A stretch of 64,000 nucleotides of DNA from an uncultured Planctomycetota bacterium (GTDB taxonomy: Bacteria > Planctomycetota > Phycisphaerae > UBA1845 > CAIVHJ01). Below the pieces are notes generated by a model, which worked only from the letters and a program-made list of their open reading frames with translations, made no database searches and was not told the origin of the DNA. The stretch spans positions 1,635 to 65,634 of the forward strand of contig CALODL010000010.1 of assembly GCA_942492115.1 (NCBI GenBank), read 5' to 3'. This document shows, in pieces, positions 4,570 to 63,468 of this stretch. The translations under genes were made by a program, and so were the position numbers. Within the stretch, counting starts at the first letter, position 1, and every line of letters begins with the position of its first letter.

Positions 4570-4599
4570 GGCGGTCACGTTATCGACCAGATACGACGC

Positions 4600-4649
4600 G
4601 CGAGTCGTTTGAGGCGCCCAATGCCCCTCTGACGACTCGCGTTTTTTTT
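4600..4649 (+). terminator. Putative intrinsic terminator downstream of the HEAT protein gene
   Basis: GCGAGTCGT ... ACGACTCGC inverted repeat followed by a T8 run. The loop is long (~23 nt), so confidence is moderate. Confidence 0.45.
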
Positions 4650-4720
4650 GGGGTTCTTCACGAAATTCCGGGCTGGGCCTTCGCACATGATCCTGTGACG
4701 CACACGTGACGAGGGTTCGA
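4642..4720 (+). repeat. Copy A of a conserved ~80-nt post-terminator element (TTTTTTTGGGGTTCTTCACGAAATTCCGGGCTGGGCCTTCGCACATGATCCTGTGACGCACACGTGACGAGGGTTCG)
   Basis: About 88% identical to 16062-16145. Both copies begin at the T-run of a terminator downstream of a + strand gene. Confidence 0.6.
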
Positions 4721-4800
4721 GGCATTGGCCGCTGCGGGGGGAAAGCGGTGGGTGGCGTCGGGATTACCCGCGAGGAACATCGCTCTGTATAATCCTCGCC

Positions 4801-6984
4801 ATGTCAGAACTCCCATTACGACCGACGTGGCCGACTCTCATCGCGCTGTTCTTGAGCACGCTGGCAGCGGCACAGAACCCGCTCCCGGCCGAACCCGAAT
4901 CACTCCCGCGTAATACACCGCGAGAGCTGTTCCGCAGCTTTCTGATTTCTGCCTGGAATGTCGAGTCCAATCCGGCATCGAAGGTCCCGCTGGCGCTGGA
5001 ATGTCTTGATACGTCCGAAATCGCCTACGAGGACTACCAGGTCGAGGGGCTCAAGAAGGTCCAGCAACTCGCAACTATCCTCGATGAATTCCCGGCCTTT
5101 GACCTGCTCAAGATCCGCGATGACAACAGGCATGCGACCGAGAGATACGCCATACCGGATCTACCGGGCCGCGTGCTGGTGCTCACCCGCACCGACGCCT
5201 TCGACGATCAGTGGGTCTTCGATCTCGATACCGTCAATGCCCTCGAAGAACTCAGTGCAGCGGTCATCGAGGCCCGCAAGAGCCGATCCGAAGCCACCGA
5301 CGAGCAACTGGCCGCTGTTCCGGCTGCGCGGCGTACACCGCGGGCAACCATGGATACGTTCCTCAAAGCTGCGGCTGAACAGCGTTACGCAGAGGCTGCA
5401 GAATGCTTCGACCTCAGCAGTATCCAGGCAGCCATTCGCGACGAAGAAGGCCGGACGATGACCGACACAATGCTGTTCTGCATCAGTCGCCTGGGGCCGG
5501 TTGTTTTGCAGACGATCCCGCGTGACCCGGTTTACAAACCGTCGCCTTACCCATGGCGAACACGTGACCAATACAGCATTTCGTTGAACCGTATCGAGAG
5601 TGGTGACGATGCCGGACAGTGGAAGTTCTCGGCCAGGACCGTCGCGACCCTCCGAGACCTGGCAACCGTCCTGGGGGATGCCGCCCCGACCACGATGGGG
5701 ACTCAGACGACGACCGCCGTCAAAGTTCCGTGGGGCATCCGGCTGCGCCAGGCCATTCCGGACAGCCTCGAGCGCGAGCACTTCTTCATCGAGGACTGGC
5801 AGTGGCTCGCGTTGTTGAGCCTCGTGACCCTCGGCGTAGTCGGCGAGTTCATCGTCGCGCTCATCCTCGGCTACATGGTCAAGTTGTACTATGAGAGAGT
5901 CAGCAGTACGAGCATGGAGAAGCGCTTACGGCGACAGTTCGTACGTCCGATCGGCTGGCTGGCCATGGCATTGCTGTGGTGGATCGGATTGCGTTTTCTT
6001 GATCTCGACCACAGTGTACTTGCCGTCCTGCTCGGGGCCGTCAAGTTCTTTGCCGCAGTCGCCGGCGTGTGGAGCTGCTACCGCCTGGCCGATTTGATCG
6101 CCGGAATGCTCGAAAGCCGGGCCTCACGAACGACCAGCAAGTATGACGATCTGCTCGTCCCACTCATCCGCAAGTCGCTCAAGATTTTCGTTACCGTGTT
6201 CGGGGTCGTGTTCATCGCCGACACCATGGACTGGAAGATCCACACCCTGCTCACCGGCCTCGGCATTGGCGGACTGGCAGTTGCCTTCGCCGCGCGAGAA
6301 ACCCTGGGTAACATCCTCGGCTCCTTGACCGTTCTGCTCGACCGCCCCTTCCACATCGGGGACTGGGTCAAGATTGGAAACACCGAGGGCACCGTTGAAG
6401 CTGTCGGATTCCGCAGCACCCGCATCCGCACGTTCTACAACTCGGTGATCACGATTCCCAATTCCGATTGCGTGAACCATGCCATCGACAATATGGGTTC
6501 ACGAACCTACCGTCGATACAGCTGTCATATTTCGGTCGTGTATGCCACGACACCCGATCAGCTCGAAGCGTTTTGTGAAGGAATCCGTGAGTTGATTCGG
6601 CGGCACCCCTACACCAGGAAAGACTACTTCCATGTGTACGTGCACAATTTCGCTGCATCTTCGATCGACATCCTGCTGTATTGCTTCTGGCACGCCCCGG
6701 ACTGGGGCACGGAATTGCGCGAGCGGCAGCGTCTGCTCATCGACATCAAACGCCTGGCCGAGGGCCTCGGCGTCGATTTCGCGTTCCCGACCCAAACGCT
6801 TCACCTTCAGCAGGACGCGGCATCTCGTGCCATTCCGGAGCTGGGTGAAACGCCAGCACAAACGGGTATTCGTGATGCTCGGCGCATCGTCCAGGAGAAC
6901 CTCGGCCCACCGGGCAAGCCGCCGCCGCCGGTGACCTTCGAAATACGCCCATTCATAGGTGGCGAGGACGACGGCGGCGCTTGA
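4801..6984 (+). CDS. Large MscS-family mechanosensitive channel (MscK/YbiO-like: periplasmic N-domain + TM + MscS core)
   Basis: 727-aa ORF with an N-terminal signal peptide and multiple TM helices. The MscS core is recognisable: 'GIGGLAVAFAARETLGNILGSLTVLLDRPFHIGDWVKIGNTEGTVEAVGFRSTRIRTFYNSVITIPNS'. Confidence 0.85.
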   Translation: MSELPLRPTWPTLIALFLSTLAAAQNPLPAEPESLPRNTPRELFRSFLISAWNVESNPASKVPLALECLDTSEIAYEDYQVEGLKKVQQLATILDEFPAFDLLKIRDDNRHATERYAIPDLPGRVLVLTRTDAFDDQWVFDLDTVNALEELSAAVIEARKSRSEATDEQLAAVPAARRTPRATMDTFLKAAAEQRYAEAAECFDLSSIQAAIRDEEGRTMTDTMLFCISRLGPVVLQTIPRDPVYKPSPYPWRTRDQYSISLNRIESGDDAGQWKFSARTVATLRDLATVLGDAAPTTMGTQTTTAVKVPWGIRLRQAIPDSLEREHFFIEDWQWLALLSLVTLGVVGEFIVALILGYMVKLYYERVSSTSMEKRLRRQFVRPIGWLAMALLWWIGLRFLDLDHSVLAVLLGAVKFFAAVAGVWSCYRLADLIAGMLESRASRTTSKYDDLLVPLIRKSLKIFVTVFGVVFIADTMDWKIHTLLTGLGIGGLAVAFAARETLGNILGSLTVLLDRPFHIGDWVKIGNTEGTVEAVGFRSTRIRTFYNSVITIPNSDCVNHAIDNMGSRTYRRYSCHISVVYATTPDQLEAFCEGIRELIRRHPYTRKDYFHVYVHNFAASSIDILLYCFWHAPDWGTELRERQRLLIDIKRLAEGLGVDFAFPTQTLHLQQDAASRAIPELGETPAQTGIRDARRIVQENLGPPGKPPPPVTFEIRPFIGGEDDGGA

Positions 6985-7042
6985 TCCAGCAGTTCGTGCG
7001 GCCGAAGCGCCGAAGGTGCGCGTTATGCGTCGACGTCCGATA

Positions 7043-7312
7043 TCACGCCCCGTCCGGCGTGGCCGAGGCAACCAGGCCGTTGACCACCGCGCCCAGAATG
7101 GATTCCAGGCCGTCGCTCGCAGCACCGCTCGCATCCCCCGAGAACAACCCACCCATGAGCGAGGTGACCCCTACGCCCAGACCCGGGAGGGCCACCTGGC
7201 GGAATTCACGGGCTGTTTCTCCTGTAAAGCACAAACTCACGTTGAGTGTCCCGGCTGCACACGCCACAAGGGCGATTCGATTCAACTTGCACCATGTTTG
7301 ATTGACTGTCAT
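7043..7312 (-). CDS. Small hypothetical secreted Gly/Ala/Ser-rich protein (89 aa), divergent from the sigma-54 activator gene
   Basis: AGGAGG lies 7 nt upstream of ATG(ACAGTC). The N-terminus resembles a signal peptide (MTVNQTWCKLNRIALVACAAG) and the mature part is low-complexity. It could be a spurious GC-rich ORF. Confidence 0.25.
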   Translation of the reverse strand: MTVNQTWCKLNRIALVACAAGTLNVSLCFTGETAREFRQVALPGLGVGVTSLMGGLFSGDASGAASDGLESILGAVVNGLVASATPDGA

Positions 7313-7512
7313 CACCATACCTCCTGTGGCCCATGTCATCGGACACCCGGGACCATCCCCATGACCTGCGCGGCCCCGCGGATTCGAGCGGCCGGCGGCA
7401 CAGCGCAGATCCTGCCGGCGAAGGACGCTCGAGCCTCCATGGTTGCTTGGCCGGCGTTGCGGTGGTAAATATTACCCACATTTCCAACTACCTTTGATAT
7501 GGACGCAACGAT

Positions 7513-15996: not shown

Positions 15997-16024
15997 ACCC
16001 GCACCATCGACACGAACGACTTCC

Positions 16025-16068
16025 GCTGCCGGATCGAGCCGCACAGGCTGCCGATCCGGCAGTTTTTT
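16025..16068 (+). terminator. Rho-independent terminator after rplS
   Basis: Perfect 11-bp inverted repeat CTGCCGGATCG / CGATCCGGCAG followed by T7. Confidence 0.8.
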
Positions 16069-16145
16069 TGGGGGTGGTTCTTCACGACATTCCGGGATGG
16101 GCCTGCGCACATGATCCTGTTGACGCACGCGTGGCGGAGGGTCGA
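16062..16145 (+). repeat. Copy B of the conserved post-terminator element (TTTTTTTGGGGGTGGTTCTTCACGACATTCCGGGATGGGCCTGCGCACATGATCCTGTTGACGCACGCGTGGCGGAGGGTCG)
   Basis: About 88% identical to 4642-4720. A second T9 run follows at ~16201-16209, so the element may be the 5' part of a ~140-nt transcript. Confidence 0.6.
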
Positions 16146-16296
16146 TGGCTCGAGCCCGCCGTCGGGGAGGACGTCCGGTCCCGCAAACCCGTGCCGAGCT
16201 TTTTTTTTGCGCTCACCTCCCCCACCGTCGTCTTGACTACTGGAGCGACCACATCCCACGGCCATGTTTCAGGTCGCTCCTCTGGAGCCCTGGACG

Positions 16297-48618: not shown

Positions 48619-51600
48619 CTACCGTTCGCGTCGGTGCACGACTTCGATGTGCGCTGCCGTAACCTCTTCAATCGCGATGTAGCCGTGCGCTGACGTCGGA
48701 AACAATACCGTACGCGCAGAGGCATCGTCGGGATCGTAAGCAAGCGACACGATGAAAGTGCCCCGTGCATCTTTGCTGGCCCGCAGCGTCAGTGTGGCGA
48801 GGTATGCACCGTCCAATGCATTCACACCTGGACGATCAAGCCCTGCTACCAACTGCCGCGTGCGCAGGTTGTAGGCATCCCACCAGGCGCCGGGATCGAA
48901 TACATGATCATCATGCTCCTGAACGGCCAAATCGATGAGATCGAGTGCCCCCGCCGTGCCACCGAGCACCTCGAAATGGAGTTGATAACCTCGTAAGTCA
49001 AAGACTGCAGCATCCAGGCGTACGGTCACCTCCACGGTACCGCCCGGGCGAACGGCGGGGCTCTGCGGGTCCAGACGTACGGCAGTGGTCCCAACGACCT
49101 CGGGGGTGATCATCGGCGACGGACCGCCATCCAACGGGCAACTGCACGACGACGCCCCCTCGAAAGCGTTCAAGGCGGCAAATGCATCGTTGCCGTCACA
49201 CACACCATCTGGTTCGCAGCTACCAAACTGACCACCGCAATCCACATTAAAGGCCACTGGAGCCTCCACCTCACACGGGAATGATGCCGGCGGCGGTGTG
49301 TTGGGATCGACGTCAGCGAAACAGTTCAACGCCAGAAAGCGATCGTTACCATCTGCGGTCCCATCAGGTGCACACGCGCCGAACTGGCCGCCCATGTCGC
49401 CGAATACGACTTCGGTTGCCTGGCACACACCCGCTCCGCACAGCCACCACACGCAGCCATCGTCGCGCACCCCATTGTTGTCCAGATCGGCGCAGTCGGA
49501 CACGATCGTACAGTCACCCCCTCCACAACCGATGGCATCTTCATCGAGTTCGTCATCGCAGTCATCATCGATACCGTCGCACGTCGCATCCTCTGCCGCC
49601 GGTTCGCCCGGCATACAGTCATCGATGACCACACCCTCGACACAGACGGTCATGCCACTGGCCATACACGCGCCTATCCCACAGAGGGTCTTACTGGCTT
49701 CGAAGTCCTCATCGAAGATGGCATCACAGTCATCATCGATGCCATCACACGTCGCGTCATCCACGGCCGGAGTACCCGGGACGCAACTGTCGGTCGGGAC
49801 ACCGTCAACACAACCCGACAGCCCCTCGGACGCACACGCACCCACGCCGCACGTCGTCGCCGTGCTCATCACATCCTCGTCGGTCAGACCGTCGCAATCA
49901 TCGTCGACCCCGTCGCACGTCGCATCGTCCACGGCCGGAGTGCCCGGGACGCAACTGTCGGTCGGGACACCGTCAACACAGCCCGACAACCCCTCGGACG
50001 CACACGCACCCACGCCGCACGTCGTCGCCGTGCTCATCACGTCCTCGTCGGTCAGACCGTCGCAATCATCGTCGACCCCGTCGCACGTCGCGTCGTCCAC
50101 GGCCGGAGTGCCCGGGACGCAACTGTCGGTCGGGACACCGTCAACACAGCCCGACAGCCCTTCGGACGCACACGCACCCACGCCGCACGTCGTCGCCGTG
50201 CTCATCACGTCCTCGTCGGTCAGACCGTCGCAATCATCGTCGACCCCGTCGCACGTCGCGTCGTCCACGGCCGGAGTACCCGGAACGCAGCTGTCGGTCG
50301 GGACACCGTCAACACAGCCCGACAGCCCTTCGGACGAACACGCGCCCACACCGCACGTCGTCGCCGTGCTCATCACGTCCTCGTCGGTCAGACCGTCGCA
50401 ATCATCGTCGACCCCGTCGCACGTCGCGTCGTCCACGGCCGGAGTACCCGGAACGCAGCTGTCGGTCGGGACACCGTCAACACAGCCCGACAGCCCTTCG
50501 GACGCACACGCGCCCACACCGCACGTCGTCGCCGTGCTCATCACGTCCTCGTCGGTCAGGCCGTCGCAATCATTGTCGACCCCGTCGCACGTCGCGTCGT
50601 CCACGGCCGGAGTACCCGGAACGCAGCTGTCGGTCGGGACACCGTCAACACAGCCCGACAGCCCTTCGGACGCACACGCACCCACGCCGCACGTCGTCGC
50701 CGTGCTCATCACGTCCTCGTCGGTCAGACCGTCGCAGTCCTCGTCCACTCCGTCACACAGCGTGTCACTGACCGCTGCACCCGCGAACGGGTCACATGAA
50801 TCCTCGACAGCACCCGCCACACACGTCAGCACACCGGTGTTGCCGGCACAGGCTCCTACGCCACACTCTGATGGACTGGACACATAATCTTCATCGAACG
50901 AACCATCACAATCGTCATCGAGGCCATCGCATGTCGGATCGGTTGGCGCGGGTGGAGAATGGTCACACACCCCTGCCACACAGGTATCGAGGGTGCAGTC
51001 GTCAAAGTCATCACACAAACTGTCGTCGGGCACGCCCACGCAGGACCCGTCGGTACAGGTATCGACGGTGCACACGAGACCATCATCACATGGCAACGTG
51101 TTGTCCGTCGCGACGCAATTCCCGGCCCCGTCACACGCATCATCGGTACATGGATTGGTGTCGGCCGTACACGGGGTTCCCGCAGAACTGGCCACATTGC
51201 TACACACACCTGCGGTACAGGAATCATCAGTGCACTCGAGACCATCGGCGCAATCGGCCGGGGTCACGACATCGAGGGTCGCAACCAGACTGGTCGCATC
51301 CCCACAGGAGTTGGTCACGACCACGTCGTAATCACCCGCATCGGCAGGTCCCACTGGATCGATGAGCAACGTCGGTTGATCTGCTCCAGGAATCGGTGTG
51401 CCCTGGAATCGCCATGCATAGGTCAACGGCACGCTGCCACTCGGCGTGACGTCCAACACCACGCTGTCGCCCGAGCACACGCTGGAAGATTCAGGTGGAG
51501 TGACAATCACCGGCGGCACACATGGCCCCGTGATGCAGAAGCGCTCGAAAGAAAACACCTGCGCTGCCGGCGCATTGCGGTGAGTCGCAAACAGACCCGC

Positions 51601-54600
51601 GAACGTCACGGGGCCCGTCATCCCATCCGGTAGAACCACGCCATTGAACAGGTCGGAGGTCATCACGACGGTGCCGACCGGCACAGCGGCGCCACCATTC
51701 ACGGCATAGGCGGCGGTCACCTCCTGGGTCGTTGGATCGAGTGACATCGACAGAACGACGTCGTCACCGCTGACCGCGATGTTCTCGATCTCGACCCCAC
51801 CGGGGCTGCTCCCGCCCTCCTCTCCACGGACCTCGACGTCATAGTTCCCGGGGGTCGATGAGAAAACAATGAGTTTGACGTAGGTGTCCTCATCGAGAAA
51901 GACCCACCCACCTGCCTGCGCAAACCCGCGCGTCGCGACGGGCAAGTTGTTGAGCGCAATGTCAACATTCAGTTCGGACGTCGCATCGACGGCCACACCG
52001 AGTCCATTGTCCAGTGAGTTGTTGGAGGTGAACTGGATGCCGGCCGTCGTCGTTAGCGCCAGCTCACCACTCACGATGTCCACATCGATTTGCCCGGGCA
52101 GATACCCGGCCGCGTTCGATGGCGGATCGACCATGGTGAATCCCGTGCCGTCCCCATCGACATCCTCCAAGCCCCCCTCGTCCATCTCCCAGTCGAGCTT
52201 GAACGGCAGGCTGACGGGCACATCGACGCAGTCGAGCATTGAAATCGGGTTGCACCCGGCACCTGGCGTCACTTGTAAGGTGACCATGAGTGTCGCGTCG
52301 GCGTAGCCACTGGATGTGGCCGTTACCGTCGCCGTGTACGCCCCCGGCGCCAGGCCATCGGTCGCGACTTCTACATCGAACGGGATGTCGGCCGTGACCT
52401 GCGCCGCGACCGTCAACCAAGTCGGCTCCAGACCGGTCGCATCGTCAACCGCCGCAATGTCCGCAGTCGGGGATTGTCCGTCGTTGGCGGTGACCGTGGT
52501 GCTGGCCGAGTCGATATTGCTGCCTTCTTCCATCATGAACGGCAGGAGCGCGGGTGAGAACGCCAATGCAGGCGGAGCAGCGGGCTCCGCAAGGCAGAAA
52601 TCCTCGAAGACGAAATCGAGTGTCGAGCCGTTGCGCTGCGTTGCGAATACACCCGCGAAACTGACTGGGCCGGTCATGCCGTCGGGCAAAGTGACGCCAG
52701 AGAACAGGGCATTGTTCACGGTGATCGCATCAACCAGCATCTCGCCACCACCGTTGACCTGCACAAGCCCACTGACCTCGGAAGTTTGCGGATCGAGGAC
52801 CATCGTCAGCTTGACGTGATCACCAGGTACGACGATGCTCGCGGTAGCAGAACTCTCGACGAACTGATTGCTCTGCTCGTAGAGAATCTCGACCTTGTAG
52901 CTGCCGGTGACGTCCGAAACGACGACCAACTTGATGTAGTGCGATTCATTCAGGAAGAACCACACGCCCGCCTGCTCGAACTGACCGCTGACGGCAGGCA
53001 GGTTGATTATCGTTGTTTCAATGCGCGTGTCCTGGGCGCTGGCATCCCAGGCGACGCCCAGGCCATTATCCAGAGAATTGGGATTGTTGGCCGTCTCGCC
53101 GAACTGAATCCCGGGCGTCGTTGTGATCGTGAGTGTTCCCGCTCCAGTGTCGACGGCCAGATTGTTCGGCAGGTATCCGGCCCCATTGCTCGGCGGATCA
53201 ACCATGGTGAAGCCGGTCCCCACGCCAGAATTGTCCACCAGACCGTCTTCCGAAGCGTCCCAGTCAAGCTTGTGCGGCAGCGTAACCGGCACGTCGGCGC
53301 AGACGGGTTGGGCCAACACAGCGCAATCGCCGGATGGAGCCAACTGCACGTTCATGACCACGAAATCAAAGTCCTGGTAGTCGCCATGAAATGCGTCCTC
53401 GAAGGCGACGAAATAGGCGTATGGCACAACGAAACCCTGGCGGTCCTTCAACGGGTAAACCCTTGCGGAATGCGCTGACTGCGCTGGATTGAGCGCGATG
53501 TTAAGATCGTCTTCGGTGTAAGCCGTGTGCGAAGGGCTGGTGATGTAGAATCCGAATGCCCCAGGCCCAGGATCGAATGTCGTCACCCCGGAAGTCATCT
53601 CGGGAAACAGCGTCTGGTGCTCCGCCGGACTCGATGCGCCGCTGAGTACCCCCACTTGCGTGAGGGACGGGGCTGCGCCGTTCGGCCCGTAGTACCCATA
53701 GGGCAGCGCGAATGCTGGAGAATAACGTGCGACCGGCACCATGACCACGTCACCGGATCCGGACTTTGTGAACAGTGATGCGGGCACTTCGTCACCAATG
53801 GGTGCTGCGTCGACGCCCAGCTCCAGCTCCGTTCCCCCGACGTCGATAGCATGCCCCAACGTCTGAACAACATCGTGCAACGTAGGTTCATTGGAGCCCT
53901 CGAGGCCGTCGGCACTGAGGCCGTGAACACCCACCTGAACGACGGCCTCATTGGGGTCGTCGCTGGCGATCTCAACAGCGGCGCTGAATGTGCCAACGGC
54001 TGTCGCACCGGGCGAAAAAGCGATATCGATCATCACTTCCGCGCCGGGTATCAGCGTCACGGGGGTGGTCGGCGGGGTCACGATGGTGAACTCACCCGCA
54101 TCAGCGCCGGTCAATGCCACGGTTGCAATCTCGAGATCTGCCGTGCCGGTGTTGGATAGAGTCAAAACCTGCGCTGGCGTGACTGTATCCTTAAGGCCGC
54201 TGTACACCAGGTCAGATGCCGACAAGCCAATATCCGGTACACCGGATCCGCCGAGAGGACGACACAACGTGATTTTGGATGCCCCGAATTCAGATACATA
54301 AAGATGCCCATTGTCGAGGTTCTCGACGACATCGAGCGGGTTATTGAAACCGGTGAGACCCGTGATCCCCGTCTGCGATGCCACGATCTCCAAACCGCTG
54401 CCACTTGGCGTCAGGGCCATGAGATCATCTCCGCTGCTGTAGCGGACGACCAGCAATGCCCCCTGAAGGTCACCGGCTGAACGATACTCGATGATCCCAT
54501 TCGGCGATTTGTGCGTACCAAAATCGAAGACCGCCCCACGGTAGTTGCTGTCCGGCAGGGTCCCCTCGGGATATTCGGTGACCTCGAGTGGATCTACTGC

Positions 54601-55575
54601 TGCCGTCGGATTCGCGCCGCTCATGGCAAACTCGCAGCGCTGCGGATTGGGATGACCGTAGTAACCACCGGGTTCGATGCGCAGCAGATAGTCCGGTTGA
54701 ATCGACACACCGACCAGGCCGGTCACGGCCGGCCCGCCGTATGAACTGCCGTCGGCGCAGGCCGCACCCACCACGCCTTCGGGGGTATTGCCATTGGGAG
54801 CAGAACCGTTGTTCGGTATGTACAGGTGACCGTTGCCATGCCACACCAGATCGTAGGCGTTGCGCAGCCCGCTGGCATGGATGGTCAGAGCAGCGCCCGG
54901 CGCATAGGGATCATACGTGCCCGGCAGCTCGGTCATGACGTCGAGTGGCGGAGTCGCCACGCCCAGCGTGTCGAAGCGCAACACCGCCGCGGACAGTCCC
55001 CGTTCTGCACGGTCAGCCCACGCGGGGTCGGGTGCGCCCATCGCGGAATTGGATCCCTGCACGACATACAATGCTCCGTCGGGCCCGAATACCATGCTGT
55101 TGGTCGTGTGGTCGCGACTCGAGCGCGGCAGGCCGACAATGAAGTCCTGGACGTTCTGCAAGTGGCTGCCACTCAAACGGGTGATCTTGCCGGTCCAGTC
55201 CGCCATTTCAGAAAAACCGTATTCGCTGTGGCTGACCCAGGCAATGAGGTTCTGTGGTGTAGAGGCTGGATCGAAAGCCAATCCGATCGCCAGACGATCT
55301 GCTCCCTCGGCAACTTGCAGCGCATCAAGGATCTCGACTGCCCCCAGGATGCCATCTGAATCGATGGACCAGCGCCGCACCTGCCCCTCGAGCGTCAAGC
55401 CATAGAGCTGCCCATCCGGTCCGATCGTCAGACTCGTATACTGTGCTCCTGCGGACGTAGGCAACGATACCTGTTCAAAAGTCGCGCCGTCTGCGCCGGC
55501 CAGGGCAGCCAGGCACGACATCATCCCCACGACCGCTGGCCTGATAGCAATGTTCACGAACGTTCCCTCCTGCAC
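48619..55575 (-). CDS. Giant secreted multidomain protein (2318 aa): SGDH-like beta-propeller, choice-of-anchor-D/ASH-like domain, two ConA/LamG-like modules, Ig-like domain, ~10 Cys-rich 'CDGxDDDCDGxxDED' repeats, two dockerin-like repeats, C-terminal beta-domain
   Basis: Single uninterrupted ORF. N-terminal domain motifs 'FGPDGALYVVQGSNSAMG' and 'GLRNAYDLVWHGNGHLY' (glucose/sorbosone dehydrogenase-like). Two internally duplicated ~330-aa modules. Cys-rich repeats of the Myxococcus-type pattern. 'GGQFGACAPDGTADGNDRFLALNCF' occurs twice (dockerin-like Ca loops). Confidence 0.9.
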   Translation of the reverse strand: MQEGTFVNIAIRPAVVGMMSCLAALAGADGATFEQVSLPTSAGAQYTSLTIGPDGQLYGLTLEGQVRRWSIDSDGILGAVEILDALQVAEGADRLAIGLAFDPASTPQNLIAWVSHSEYGFSEMADWTGKITRLSGSHLQNVQDFIVGLPRSSRDHTTNSMVFGPDGALYVVQGSNSAMGAPDPAWADRAERGLSAAVLRFDTLGVATPPLDVMTELPGTYDPYAPGAALTIHASGLRNAYDLVWHGNGHLYIPNNGSAPNGNTPEGVVGAACADGSSYGGPAVTGLVGVSIQPDYLLRIEPGGYYGHPNPQRCEFAMSGANPTAAVDPLEVTEYPEGTLPDSNYRGAVFDFGTHKSPNGIIEYRSAGDLQGALLVVRYSSGDDLMALTPSGSGLEIVASQTGITGLTGFNNPLDVVENLDNGHLYVSEFGASKITLCRPLGGSGVPDIGLSASDLVYSGLKDTVTPAQVLTLSNTGTADLEIATVALTGADAGEFTIVTPPTTPVTLIPGAEVMIDIAFSPGATAVGTFSAAVEIASDDPNEAVVQVGVHGLSADGLEGSNEPTLHDVVQTLGHAIDVGGTELELGVDAAPIGDEVPASLFTKSGSGDVVMVPVARYSPAFALPYGYYGPNGAAPSLTQVGVLSGASSPAEHQTLFPEMTSGVTTFDPGPGAFGFYITSPSHTAYTEDDLNIALNPAQSAHSARVYPLKDRQGFVVPYAYFVAFEDAFHGDYQDFDFVVMNVQLAPSGDCAVLAQPVCADVPVTLPHKLDWDASEDGLVDNSGVGTGFTMVDPPSNGAGYLPNNLAVDTGAGTLTITTTPGIQFGETANNPNSLDNGLGVAWDASAQDTRIETTIINLPAVSGQFEQAGVWFFLNESHYIKLVVVSDVTGSYKVEILYEQSNQFVESSATASIVVPGDHVKLTMVLDPQTSEVSGLVQVNGGGEMLVDAITVNNALFSGVTLPDGMTGPVSFAGVFATQRNGSTLDFVFEDFCLAEPAAPPALAFSPALLPFMMEEGSNIDSASTTVTANDGQSPTADIAAVDDATGLEPTWLTVAAQVTADIPFDVEVATDGLAPGAYTATVTATSSGYADATLMVTLQVTPGAGCNPISMLDCVDVPVSLPFKLDWEMDEGGLEDVDGDGTGFTMVDPPSNAAGYLPGQIDVDIVSGELALTTTAGIQFTSNNSLDNGLGVAVDATSELNVDIALNNLPVATRGFAQAGGWVFLDEDTYVKLIVFSSTPGNYDVEVRGEEGGSSPGGVEIENIAVSGDDVVLSMSLDPTTQEVTAAYAVNGGAAVPVGTVVMTSDLFNGVVLPDGMTGPVTFAGLFATHRNAPAAQVFSFERFCITGPCVPPVIVTPPESSSVCSGDSVVLDVTPSGSVPLTYAWRFQGTPIPGADQPTLLIDPVGPADAGDYDVVVTNSCGDATSLVATLDVVTPADCADGLECTDDSCTAGVCSNVASSAGTPCTADTNPCTDDACDGAGNCVATDNTLPCDDGLVCTVDTCTDGSCVGVPDDSLCDDFDDCTLDTCVAGVCDHSPPAPTDPTCDGLDDDCDGSFDEDYVSSPSECGVGACAGNTGVLTCVAGAVEDSCDPFAGAAVSDTLCDGVDEDCDGLTDEDVMSTATTCGVGACASEGLSGCVDGVPTDSCVPGTPAVDDATCDGVDNDCDGLTDEDVMSTATTCGVGACASEGLSGCVDGVPTDSCVPGTPAVDDATCDGVDDDCDGLTDEDVMSTATTCGVGACSSEGLSGCVDGVPTDSCVPGTPAVDDATCDGVDDDCDGLTDEDVMSTATTCGVGACASEGLSGCVDGVPTDSCVPGTPAVDDATCDGVDDDCDGLTDEDVMSTATTCGVGACASEGLSGCVDGVPTDSCVPGTPAVDDATCDGVDDDCDGLTDEDVMSTATTCGVGACASEGLSGCVDGVPTDSCVPGTPAVDDATCDGIDDDCDAIFDEDFEASKTLCGIGACMASGMTVCVEGVVIDDCMPGEPAAEDATCDGIDDDCDDELDEDAIGCGGGDCTIVSDCADLDNNGVRDDGCVWWLCGAGVCQATEVVFGDMGGQFGACAPDGTADGNDRFLALNCFADVDPNTPPPASFPCEVEAPVAFNVDCGGQFGSCEPDGVCDGNDAFAALNAFEGASSCSCPLDGGPSPMITPEVVGTTAVRLDPQSPAVRPGGTVEVTVRLDAAVFDLRGYQLHFEVLGGTAGALDLIDLAVQEHDDHVFDPGAWWDAYNLRTRQLVAGLDRPGVNALDGAYLATLTLRASKDARGTFIVSLAYDPDDASARTVLFPTSAHGYIAIEEVTAAHIEVVHRRER
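49575..50760. repeat. 168-bp tandem repeat array inside the giant gene (about 6 near-identical core units at 49744-50752, flanked by degenerate units)
   Basis: Period-168 recurrence of 'GTCGCACGTCGC' at 49912, 50080, 50248, 50416 and 50584. Each unit encodes a 56-aa 'CDGVDDDCDGLTDEDVMSTATTCGVGACASEGLSGCVDGVPTDSCVPGTPAVDDAT'. Units differ by 0-3 nt. Confidence 0.85.
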
Positions 55576-56936: not shown

Positions 56937-56981
56937 CGTCCACAGTGCAAAACGAGCCTGCGTGTGAAGCCACATGTGGGC

Positions 56982-57015
56982 TTTTTTTTGGTTCTTCACG
57001 CATTTTGCGGGACCG
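56982..57015 (+). repeat. Partial third copy of the post-terminator element (TTTTTTTTGGTTCTTCACGCATTTTGCGGGACCGG)
   Basis: Shares 'T-run + GGTTCTTCACG..ATT..CGGG' with copies A and B, immediately after the lipoprotein stop. Similarity fades after ~30 nt. Confidence 0.35.
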
Positions 57016-57160
57016 GACGTCCTCCCAGACCGCGGGCTCGAGCCCTTGGCCGCAGTTGATCCGCACTCACCGCAGGCAAGACTGCACAATCTCTTCGCGG
57101 TGTTCGAGGAGGATGGTGCGAAATTCGCCCCTATCGCCCGTCGGTAGGCCACGTCCTCAT

Positions 57161-58151: not shown

Positions 58152-58754
58152 CTACTCGAGAATGTCACCCAGCTCGTGCCGCAAGCGTTGCAACACGCGT
58201 GAACGAGCCACGCGCACCCCAACAGGACTCATGCCCAACTCATTAGCGACGTCAGCTGTCGGACGTCCATCCACGACCGTAGCCCAGAAAGCCGACCATG
58301 TGTTGTCCCTGAAGTGCTCTTGCACCTGCATGAGCGCTCTGCGCAATACACTGTTGAACGCTGTCTCTTCTTCGGACGCGTCGACCCTGATCTGCGCCTG
58401 GAACGGCACCTCTGACATACGACGTTGGATTTCGGTTCCACCCTGACCGGGTGGTTCTCGATCGCGACGGCGATAGAGGTCACACACCTTGCTGTACGTA
58501 ATCGTGCGCAGCCATCCGCGGAAGGTCCCGCCCTCACTGCGTACCTCGAACCGCGACAGGTTGGCCGCTGCAGCGTGGAACACCTCTTGAAATACGTCGG
58601 CAAGATCTGCCTCGGGCACCTGCCATCTGCGACACCAGTGGTACACCAGAGGCGCGTACAATTGTACGAGGCGCCCCCACGCCTCGGCATCGTTGGCCCG
58701 GGCGCGTTCCAGCAGGCTCGGTGAAGTCCTGGCGCTGTCCGTAATCCTGTTCAT
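58152..58754 (-). CDS. ECF (sigma-70 family) RNA polymerase sigma factor
   Basis: Region 2 'LVQLYAPLVYHWCRRW...ADLADVFQEVF' and region 4 'ANELGMSPVGVRVARSRVLQRLRHELG'. The ATG overlaps the kinase stop (ATGA at 58751-58754). Confidence 0.85.
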   Translation of the reverse strand: MNRITDSARTSPSLLERARANDAEAWGRLVQLYAPLVYHWCRRWQVPEADLADVFQEVFHAAAANLSRFEVRSEGGTFRGWLRTITYSKVCDLYRRRDREPPGQGGTEIQRRMSEVPFQAQIRVDASEEETAFNSVLRRALMQVQEHFRDNTWSAFWATVVDGRPTADVANELGMSPVGVRVARSRVLQRLRHELGDILE

Positions 58755-60559
58755 CGCCGCCCCAATCGTTCGAATACCGCGACGCTGACCGCCGAGATCA
58801 AACACGCGCTGGCAATCCCGATGATCCACACAAACGTTCCACGCAACCCGGCGCGCGTACGCGCCAGATCCCGTTCCAACGGATGAATGATCTCGAGCAC
58901 ACCGCGCACATCGCCGACCTTCCAGTCCGTCTTCGTGCTCGCAGGATGGCTGTTGTGGCATCCGATACACGACGCCTGCATCAACCGCGCGGTTGCATAC
59001 CGCAACGCATAGCGACCATCGACGTGCTCGAAGCGATAGACCGGGTCCGCGGGCACATTCCTCAGTGACATGAGAGCTGCGCGTTCGAATTCGTCACGCG
59101 GTCCGCCATCTGTCCGCGTTGTGAAAGGATAATCACTATACAGCCTCACTTGCATACCATATTCACTCTTACGCATGTCCTCACCCAGTGCAATGGTGAA
59201 TGTTGCCGGGAGCGGGATGGCACCGGCGCGACCGACGAAGTCATGGGTTACATCCACACCGGCGGCGTGCATCGGCGTGGCAACCGCAATGCTGTAGAGT
59301 GCATTCATTCGCTCGAGCATCTCAGCCTGCATTGCGGCGCTATCGAGCGCAGTTTGTTCCATGAGATGGCCAGACAATCTTGACAGATGCAGCAGTCCTC
59401 CCGCCAATCCGAGAACAACCGCGACGGTGAGCGAGGACACTACGGGATTGCGCCGACTCCAGCGCCACACACGCTCGGGAGCGCCAATCGGGCGGGCGGC
59501 GATCGGTTCACCAGCCAGAAAGCGCCGTTGATCGCATGCCAGGTCGCCAGCTGTCGCATAGCGCCGTGCCGGGCTCTTGGCCATGGCCTTGAGGCATATG
59601 GTCTCGAGATCTCGCGGAATACGATCGTTCAAGCGCCGCGGTGGCCTGGGATCCTCCTCCAGGACCTGCATGAGGACCATGCGCCGCTGACCACGAAAGG
59701 GCCGCTCGCCAGTGAGCAACTCATACATCATCACGCCAAGGCTGAACACGTCGCTGCGCGCATCGACAAAATGCCCTTCGCCTCGGGCCATCTCCGGGGA
59801 CATGTACGCTGGAGTGCCCATCACGTCGCCGGCACGGGTCACGGTGACCTCGCCCGCGTCGCGTTTGGCCAGACCAAAGTCCATGACATGCGGCTGACCG
59901 TTGGAATCGATCATGATATTGGCGGGTTTGATATCACGATGAATGATCCCGCGCGTGTGGGCGTAATGCAGGGCCTCGGACACTGTTAGCAGCAGATCAC
60001 AGACAACGCGCGGATCGCAGCGCTCATTGCGGATGCGATGCTCGAGTGTCTGCCCTGCGATATACTCACTCACCAGGTAGCACGTGCCGTCATCCGTCTC
60101 ACCGGCCTCGAACAATGCGACAATGTTCTGGTGCTTGAGTTGCGCCGCGCTGCGGGCCTCACGCAGAAAACGTTGGCGATCTTCATCTGTGCCCAGCACG
60201 TGGCTGCGGCAGACCTTGACGGCTACGATGCGTTCGAGCTGCGTATCGCGGGCTCGAAACACGTGGCCAAAGGACCCGCTGCCCAACTCGGACAGTAGCT
60301 CGAAGCGTCCGACACGCACAACCCCATCGCGCAATGCACGGGCCATGCGCCGGCCGGGATCGACGACAAGTTCTGCGCCTTCGGCCATTGCCGTCAGTGC
60401 CGCATCGAGCAACGGACGGGGTAGAGTCACTTCGTCGCTGACACCAGATGCTTCAAGACTCGACAGACGTTCGAACAGTTCGTCGGTCGGACGGTCGAGC
60501 TCACCAAGCGCGAGGGCACAGGATTCGCAAACCGCGACATGCTCGGCAATGACATGCAA
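58751..60559 (-). CDS. Hanks-type Ser/Thr protein kinase with an N-terminal CxxC segment, a TM-flanked periplasmic DUF3365/Tll0287-like domain carrying CxxCH, and a second C-terminal TM
   Basis: 'LGSGSFGHVFRA', 'VAVK', 'HRDIKPANIM', 'DFG', 'GTPAYMSPE'. TM1 'LTVAVVLGLAGGLLHL', then a periplasmic segment with 'CIGCHNSHP', then TM2 'FVWIIGIASACLISAVSVAVF'. Confidence 0.9.
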   Translation of the reverse strand: MHVIAEHVAVCESCALALGELDRPTDELFERLSSLEASGVSDEVTLPRPLLDAALTAMAEGAELVVDPGRRMARALRDGVVRVGRFELLSELGSGSFGHVFRARDTQLERIVAVKVCRSHVLGTDEDRQRFLREARSAAQLKHQNIVALFEAGETDDGTCYLVSEYIAGQTLEHRIRNERCDPRVVCDLLLTVSEALHYAHTRGIIHRDIKPANIMIDSNGQPHVMDFGLAKRDAGEVTVTRAGDVMGTPAYMSPEMARGEGHFVDARSDVFSLGVMMYELLTGERPFRGQRRMVLMQVLEEDPRPPRRLNDRIPRDLETICLKAMAKSPARRYATAGDLACDQRRFLAGEPIAARPIGAPERVWRWSRRNPVVSSLTVAVVLGLAGGLLHLSRLSGHLMEQTALDSAAMQAEMLERMNALYSIAVATPMHAAGVDVTHDFVGRAGAIPLPATFTIALGEDMRKSEYGMQVRLYSDYPFTTRTDGGPRDEFERAALMSLRNVPADPVYRFEHVDGRYALRYATARLMQASCIGCHNSHPASTKTDWKVGDVRGVLEIIHPLERDLARTRAGLRGTFVWIIGIASACLISAVSVAVFERLGRR

Positions 60560-62886: not shown

Positions 62887-63468
62887 CTACTTGGCATAGG
62901 GCTTCTCATGCCGGGCCATCATGTCGACGAACTCTCTGATGCGGCGTGTACGTGTGTCGGCCCGTTTGGCCGTCTGAATCTTGAACAATACGGCGTAGCG
63001 GTTGCGACTATCGAGTGTCGCAAAAAAAGCTTTGGCCTTACGGTTCTTGTTCAGCATGGCCTGCAGGTCCTCGGGGACCGAGGCGGTTCGCGGACCGTCG
63101 TAGGCTGCATTCCACCGTCCGTCCGCCCGGGCTCGATCGATTTCGGCCTGCCCGGCGGGCTGCATGCGCCCCTCCTCGATCAAGCGTGCGACCTTGTCGC
63201 GATTGACCTTCGACCACATGCTGCGGGCGCGACGCGGTGTGAACTTCTGCAGCCAGTAGCCGTCGTCGCGGCTCTTCTTCTGACCGTCGATCCACCCATA
63301 GCACAGCGCTACGTCGAGACCCTCGGCATATGTGATGGACGTATGGCCTGAGTCCTTACGGGCCAGTTGCATCCACACACCGTTGGCCGACGCATGATGC
63401 TTGCTGAACCACGACTCAGCATCACGGATACGCTTGAACAGCTTGACTTGATAGTCTGTCGATGACAT
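62887..63468 (-). CDS. YdeI/OmpD-associated family protein (DUF1801-like)
   Basis: 'WFSKHHASANGVWMQLARKDSGHTSITYAEGLDVALCYGWIDGQKKSRDDGYWLQKFTPRRARSMWSKVNRDKV', matching the YdeI/OmdA family pattern. Confidence 0.7.
   Translation of the reverse strand: MSSTDYQVKLFKRIRDAESWFSKHHASANGVWMQLARKDSGHTSITYAEGLDVALCYGWIDGQKKSRDDGYWLQKFTPRRARSMWSKVNRDKVARLIEEGRMQPAGQAEIDRARADGRWNAAYDGPRTASVPEDLQAMLNKNRKAKAFFATLDSRNRYAVLFKIQTAKRADTRTRRIREFVDMMARHEKPYAK

Follow-up and report, generated by a model that had tools for sequence, protein, structure and literature searches.

Three related copies (A, B, and C) of a short non-coding repeat lie at unrelated loci within 64 kb of the genome of an uncultured Planctomycetota bacterium (the whole 64,000-nucleotide stretch analyzed here is referred to as the window). 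With a probability of ~0.85, we consider them to be old, decayed non-autonomous derivatives, i.e., MITEs or relics, of an ISL3-family IS. The first 21 nt of the element, GGTTCTTCACGnnATTCCGGG, are the terminal inverted repeat (IR) of a widespread ISL3-family IS group, and the outer 11-21 nt of the copies are, judging by sequence, the IR recognized by the ISL3 DDE transposase. With a single intact IR left on each, the copies have probably lost their mobility, and they probably have no dedicated cellular function. The preliminary description of this DNA had left three options for the repeat: the dispersed repeat or miniature mobile element stood, the IR being an ISL3 terminus, while the small RNA gene and the shared regulatory module found no support.

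The starting observation was an ~80-nt element conserved at two loci, and this was borne out. Positions 4642-4720 (A) and 16062-16145 (B) share 72 identities over 85 alignment columns, i.e., 84.7% counting gaps, and their local alignment score of 103 compares with 13.4 +/- 2.4 (maximum 31) for random 84-mers from the window. BLASTN recovered the core of this pair (4652-4716 vs 16076-16142) at 89.6% identity over 67 nt with E=1e-18, a repeat finder returned it as family D11 with 93% identity over the first 45 nt, and gapped similarity reached ~4742 / 16171. In a window search, the 16-mer GGTTCTTCACGMMATT was exact at 4652 and 16076 and had one mismatch at 56990, with six hits at ≤3 mismatches vs 1.35 expected. 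The last of these positions belongs to copy C, where a third locus (56982-57015) had been said to share the first ~30 nt of the element. This similarity is real but short: GGTTCTTCACG is exact at 56990, and the first 11-13 nt of C are the same tip as in A and B.

A further match of C had been missed in the preliminary description: positions 57004-57044 (+ strand) are 95% identical over 41 nt to the reverse complement of the right part of B (16147-16187; E=8e-14), with an alignment score of 76 vs a null of 21.6 +/- 3.1. In addition, A and C match in the same orientation (4709-4732 vs 57030-57053) at 19/23 positions, with a score of 30 vs a null of 17.4 +/- 3.0 and 0/500 shuffles as high, the match consisting of the central core and TTGGCCGC. 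The alignment of the right part of A with that of B was not significant (p = 0.28). No larger duplicated segment including the flanking genes was found: similarity extends no farther left than the T-run and ends on the right at ~4742/16171, and the terminator hairpins differ. We dismissed a segmental duplication as the loci have unrelated neighbors, with a HEAT-repeat protein and an MscS-like channel at A, ribosomal protein L19 (rplS; Pfam) and YraN (UPF0102) followed by TatD at B, and a hypothetical 219-aa protein and a convergent PD40-repeat protein at C.

These matches outline the structure of each copy (Table 1). Since the right part of B (- strand) is homologous to C (+ strand) and the positions of their tips coincide, B is, on alignment grounds, a two-armed unit made of an arm 1 with an intact repeat, the palindrome GGCTCGAGCC, and an inverted arm 2 with a decayed repeat. 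Its order from left to right is GGGGGT, the IR (16076-16096), arm 1, the palindrome (16146-16155), inverted arm 2, and the decayed right tip (16188-16199). This right tip (GCTCGGCACGGG) was placed, by manual alignment and with ~15/22 positions identical, where C has its repeat tip (GGTTCTTCACGCA). In C, the order is IR, arm 2, the central palindrome GGGCTCGAGCCC, and then TTGGCCGC, and its IR (GGTTCTTCACGCATTTTGCGG) has five mismatches to the 21-nt IR of A. A central palindrome of the form GG(G)CTCGAGCC(C) is common to B (16146-16155) and C (57033-57044) and degenerate in A (4712-4721). The arms beside the palindrome occur in varied combinations and orientations, which suggests rearrangement around it.

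Right ends were harder to place. Neither A nor B had a significant right-hand IR in mismatch scans up to 7/21 or with the nhmmer IR profile, which gave no minus-strand hit, and no reverse-complement IR was present in the window copies at ≤5/21 mismatches. Positions 4773-4779 pair with the left tip of A in its MFE fold, but the IR profile gave no significant match to this right end. The same profile, which was built from 51 distinct IRs, hit only the left ends of A, B, and C in the window.

Table 1 Features of the three window copies and full-length ISL3 elements bounded by the same IR.
Feature	Position	Strand	Basis or remark
Intrinsic-terminator hairpin after the HEAT-repeat gene (stop codon ends 4569)	4598-4641	+	Fold of 4590-4652
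T8 tract of the HEAT-gene terminator; presumed A/T-rich insertion target	4642-4649	+	Read directly
Copy A, intact ISL3-type IR, GGTTCTTCACGAAATTCCGGG	4652-4672	+	Exact pattern match; IR profile E=4e-7
Copy A, part homologous to B (arm 1 and degenerate central core)	4652-4742	+	Alignments
Copy A, putative decayed right end (GGGATTACCCGCGAGGAAC), boundary uncertain	4743-4779	+	MFE pairing with left IR
Intrinsic-terminator hairpin after rplS (stop codon ends 15996)	16025-16062	+	Fold of 16015-16072
T7 tract; left copy of the presumed target duplication of B	16063-16069	+	Read directly
Copy B, complete ~130-nt non-coding insertion	16070-16199	+	A-B alignment, B(-)/C(+) match, comparison with L078
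T9 tract; right copy of the presumed target duplication of B	16200-16208	+	TTTTTTTTTGCGC aligns with ATTTTGCTTTGCGC of L078
Terminator hairpin after the 219-aa hypothetical gene (stop codon ends 56936)	56954-56981	+	Fold of 56940-56992
T8 tract adjoining copy C	56982-56989	+	Read directly
Copy C	56990-57053	+	Partly decayed IR, arm 2, palindrome, TTGGCCGC; IR profile E=0.11; right boundary tentative
L003, Verrucomicrobiota MAG, full-length ISL3 element	6078-7410, 1333 bp		Target duplication (direct repeat) ATTTATTT
L014, Spirochaeta MAG, full-length ISL3 element	857-2180, 1324 bp		Target duplication A8
L034, Holophagaceae MAG, full-length ISL3 copy			
L022, Pseudomonas, full-length ISL3 copy			
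L059, Pseudomonas, full-length ISL3 copy			

The assignment to ISL3 comes from a scan of one genome per species across Bacteria and Archaea with the pattern GGTTCTTCACGNNATTCCGGG. This yielded 76 exact matches in 72 loci from several phyla, where we estimated ~4 by chance, with hits in Pseudomonas and other Pseudomonadota, Phycisphaerae, Pirellulales, Holophagaceae, Gemmatimonadaceae, Verrucomicrobiota, Spirochaeta, Zixibacteria, Hydrogenedentota, and others. Within the window, A matches the IR at 21/21 positions and B matches as well, while C does so over its first 11-13 nt only. Three loci, in Bacteroidales, Rikenellaceae, and Anaerolineaceae (L002, L029, and L044), had GC-rich flanks without T or A runs and unusual middle dinucleotides; these probably belong to the ~4 matches expected by chance rather than to IS ends.

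Inverted IR pairs bound five full-length elements of ~1.3-2.1 kb carrying an ISL3 transposase (Table 1). The 418-aa ORF of the Spirochaeta element matched DDE_Tnp_ISL3 (PF01610, 6e-66) as well as HTH_Tnp_ISL3 and Zn_ribbon_ISL3 (PF13542 and PF14690), and hit the NCBIfam model NF033550 “ISL3 family transposase” at 1e-101. Full-length relatives of this transposase were found by tblastn in the other four elements, and the Pseudomonas copy has relatives on plasmids that carry the annotation “ISL3 family transposase”. In 5/5 full-length copies, the transposase C-terminus (..FPGIP*/FPGNP*) lies inside the right IR, the TGA stop falling within CCGTGAAGAACC (CCG TGA AGAACC). This coding of the transposase C-terminus and stop by the right IR probably underlies the near-invariance of the 21-nt terminus across distant phyla.

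The same termini also bound elements without a transposase. When the partner repeat was allowed ≤5 mismatches, we obtained 31 inverted IR pairs, mostly 150-900 bp apart (minimum 154 bp), non-coding, and flanked by 8-bp A/T-rich target duplications such as AAACTTCA, TGAACAAC, TTCTGTTT, and AACTTGTT. Elements of 150-900 bp are too short for a transposase and came from Pseudomonas, Gemmatimonadaceae, Phycisphaerae, and Pirellulales; some clustered in single Phycisphaerae MAGs, with L016, L025, and L041 in one and L005 and L064 in another.

Target bias was evaluated on the 73 ends with enough flank, against a background drawn from the same loci. The 8 nt outside the IR contained ≥6 T at 26/73 ends (36%) and ≥6 A at 21/73 (29%), each vs a background of 0.28%, and ≥6 A+T at 56/73 vs 4.2%. 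A GC-rich hairpin stood directly before ~17/26 of the T-run ends, e.g., ccaccgagaggtggcttttttt with the element starting GGTTC immediately after it, and 40-mers upstream of T-run ends had an MFE of -13.5 kcal/mol vs -9.5 kcal/mol for random ones (p=0.0016). Given this flank bias and these upstream hairpins across the ends of the genome scan, starting in a terminator T-run is a general property of the ISL3 IS group and not a peculiarity of the window.

Within the window, the layout is the same at all three loci: a + strand gene, a long GC-rich hairpin, a T-run, and then GGTTCTTCACG. That the copies begin in the T-run of a terminator following a + strand gene had been proposed at the outset, and a strong hairpin with a T-run indeed precedes all three. 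Folding energies were -30.5 kcal/mol for 4590-4652 (z = -5.6, with 0/200 shuffles as stable), -29.6 kcal/mol for 16015-16072 (z = -4.6), and -22 kcal/mol for 56940-56992 (z = -3.2). At 60.5% G+C, the window holds only four runs of T≥7, and these are the four tracts in Table 1, all of which flank elements; it holds one run of A≥7, at 63022-63028.

A comparison for B was provided by L078, a locus that keeps the gene order trmD-rplS-yraN-tatD and has an rplS-yraN spacer of 133 nt vs 267 nt in the window, i.e., 134 nt shorter. Neither an IR nor GGTTCTTCAC anywhere was found in L078. It represents an empty site for B, albeit from a distant relative (L19 79% identical) and as the sole empty site. 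Its T-rich tract ATTTTGCTTTGCGC, followed by GCGC, aligns with TTTTTTTTTGCGC at 16200-16213, which sets the right boundary of B at the second T-run. For A, the homologue search for an empty site reached a nearest HEAT protein 54% identical and a nearest MscS 48% identical. The nearest named homologues came from Phycisphaerae/Planctomycetota MAGs, in keeping with a probable Phycisphaerae-like planctomycete.

Target duplications in the window were less clear than those of the paired elements. A BLASTN check for copies and target duplications had been suggested in the preliminary description; its window part returned three copies, with a presumed duplication at B only, as the homopolymers T7 and T9 that flank it, and a homopolymer duplication is weak evidence. 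None was visible at A. The elements start 2-6 nt past the upstream terminator T-run, with 2 G-rich nt between T-run and IR at A and 6 nt (GGGGGT) at B, spacers that go beyond what a clean 8-bp T duplication would leave.

Searches for the source of the copies returned their termini only. When A, B, and C were compared by BLAST with the 72 IR-bearing loci, only the T-run and IR (≤30 nt) matched and no parent IS emerged, and no ISL3 transposase was detected in the 64-kb window (best tblastn E=5.8). The ~50 nt internal to A and B were found nowhere else in the 72 IR-bearing loci or in JGI metagenomes; the internal 20-mer GGCCTNCGCACATGATCCTG, when scanned against the metagenomes, had four hits, none with an ISL3 IR nearby, which we discarded as chance matches. 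A literature search on the 11-mer returned unrelated matches only, from other fields. An independent short-read assembly of the same organism (Logan contig L077, ERR9670067, 943 bp) is identical to the window across rplS and stops inside B at GGGCCTG, i.e., at the first difference between A and B. This hints at a repeat-induced assembly break and hence at more copies in the genome.

The following scenario would fit these observations. The window elements, at ~130 nt, have no transposase coding capacity, and a transposase from elsewhere in the genome, or one since lost, would have mobilized the ~130-nt composite in trans. ISL3 members form circular intermediates and are presumed to transpose by copy-out-paste-in (bioRxiv 10.1101/2023.06.07.543989). 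As A and B share arm 1 and the core that follows it, a short composite would have been mobilized as one piece on at least one occasion. In a genome with 60.5% G+C, long T-runs would be almost exclusively terminator U-tracts, and copies would consequently accumulate after terminators. An 8-bp duplication would remake the T-run beside the hairpin and leave termination and flanking genes intact, such that the insertion would be tolerated and nearly neutral, and the copies would have decayed afterwards.

Whether the copies moved as a MITE or are independent solo ends is less certain than their transposon origin. Undetectable right-hand repeats, the missing duplication at A, the G-rich spacers, and the absence of a transposase from the window suit old copies in decay, and they are compatible with the solo-end reading as well. 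On the solo-end reading, full-length ISL3 elements would have inserted independently and later lost their interiors and far ends, consistent with the single recognizable IR left per copy, with A having no target duplication, and with the same-strand similarity of C to A and B being the IR tip only. However, the ~100 nt shared by A and B span the passage from arm 1 into the core, an outcome rarely expected from two separate deletions; B forms a compact unit of 130 nt that lies between two T-runs and carries an IR-derived tip on either side; and no copy has a transposase fragment next to it. We favor the MITE moved as a unit, and regard independent solo ends as unlikely. A bolder reading, which we hold to be doubtful, is that the ISL3 clade and its MITEs recognize the intrinsic terminator itself, i.e., hairpin plus T-tract, rather than any A/T-rich 8-mer, perhaps through DNA structure or the transcription/replication machinery, and that relics have perhaps been co-opted, as with a -35 in A for a leaderless MscS mRNA; if true, terminator recognition would amount to a conserved “safe-haven” targeting across several phyla. 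A related possibility is that the MITE was domesticated, i.e., kept for its effect on neighbors via donation of a -35 or through terminator reinforcement or insulation. ISs are well known to create hybrid promoters (background in PMC13548323), and at A a perfect TATAAT (4788-4793) lies 7 nt upstream of the MscS-like ATG (4801), with a weak -35 (TTACCC, 4764-4769) at an 18-nt spacer, within the decayed right end. This -35 matches only 3/6 positions and was not called by the promoter scan, nothing comparable occurs at B or C, the right ends are decaying, against what purifying selection would maintain, and the element is missing in the syntenic relative, all of which makes domestication very improbable. 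A hybrid promoter for mscS with its -35 from the right end of A is possible, and the TATAAT spacing suggests that the mscS mRNA may be leaderless. A public NCBI protein matches the MscS-like ORF over its full 727 aa with the same start.

Nucleotide-level conservation in non-coding DNA at unrelated loci could also reflect a small RNA gene or cis-regulatory RNA, transcribed either through the upstream terminator or from a promoter of its own, or serving as a shared leader for downstream genes, and the T9 ~135 nt downstream in B can be read as its terminator. Several lines of evidence argue against this. Rfam returned nothing across the window at the gathering threshold and, for the A and B loci at E≤1, only ctRNA_pGA1 (21 bits vs a cut-off of 45) over the terminator hairpin itself. 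Compared with dinucleotide shuffles, neither strand of A or B folded any better (+ strand, z = -1.1 and +1.6; - strand, z = -0.4 and +0.4); with two or three copies, the set is too small for a covariation test. The promoter scan called no sigma-70-like promoter in or before the elements, and A has no terminator of its own. We rejected the T9 of B as a small-RNA terminator since it aligns with the ancestral T-tract of L078, and it appears better explained as a target duplication. The best-conserved part of the element is the transposase-binding IR common to ISs of several phyla, C lies between convergent genes and so cannot be a shared 5' leader, and L078 has the same gene order without the element. 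Taken together, this leaves an RNA gene or leader with next to no credibility. REP/BIME-like palindromes were likewise rejected, as the terminus is an IS inverted repeat.

One of the closest known systems is the clade of ISL3-family ISs with termini GGTTCTTCACGGAATTCCGGGG, with which the window copies share those termini (over 21 nt in A and B, and 11-13 nt in C) and the same A/T-rich 8-mer flank, often a terminator T-tract. They differ from full-length ISL3 ISs in their length of ~130 nt, the absence of a transposase, their single intact IR, and an interior unrelated to the ISs retrieved. ISL3-derived MITEs are another, being likewise short, non-coding, intergenic, and dispersed, with ISL3-type termini and lineage-specific interiors; an ISL3-related MITE of Methanosarcina acetivorans, for instance, is 179 bp long and present in six copies, with ISMac21 as its partner (PMC3852290). 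Typical MITEs nonetheless have two good IRs and a clean 7-8-bp duplication, whereas in the window copies the right IR is below detection and a duplication, itself a homopolymer, is present only at B, and these copies are also shorter, at ~130 nt, than any paired element we recovered (minimum 154 bp).

The position after terminators has precedents as well. Terminator-like sequences occur in excess directly before ISs (PMC13548323), and in Enterococcus faecium an rRNA-operon terminator carries an ISL3-associated insertion accompanied by an 8-bp duplication (PMC11702846). As in the window, the element there directly follows the hairpin and T-tract of the upstream gene, but those are autonomous ISs, for which protection of the transposase from read-through has been discussed, whereas the window copies are non-coding derivatives. 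Because non-coding derivatives hold the same position, a T-tract target preference is the simplest cause of the terminator position, rather than transposase regulation.

Intrinsic terminators are also followed closely by the insertion sites of class C bacterial group II introns. Like the window elements, these introns are mobile and use terminators as neutral landing sites; unlike ISL3 elements, they rely on a retrohoming ribozyme and a reverse transcriptase and have no terminal inverted repeats. By kind, the window copies are ordinary mobile-DNA debris rather than a novel RNA gene or a regulatory motif tied to terminators, which removes a false lead, and annotators should mask the element as transposon debris. 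A T-run followed by GGTTCTTCACG provides a sequence handle for both ISL3-type insertions and intrinsic terminators in poorly studied Planctomycetota, and the strong bias of this ISL3 clade and its MITEs to homopolymeric T/A targets translates, in GC-rich genomes, into terminator T-tracts.

Two other features of the window were recorded. On the - strand, 49537-50844 holds seven to eight tandem 168-bp repeats, ~90% identical, inside an ORF at 48619-55575; they encode 56-aa Cys/Asp-rich modules (..TCDGVDDDCDGLTDEDVMSTATTCGVGAC..) in a product of 2318 aa, the translation of which opens with a hydrophobic, signal-peptide-like stretch. Further along the same strand, an ECF-sigma-like ORF (58152-58970) overlaps a Ser/Thr-kinase-like ORF (58751-60559), both judged from their translations alone.
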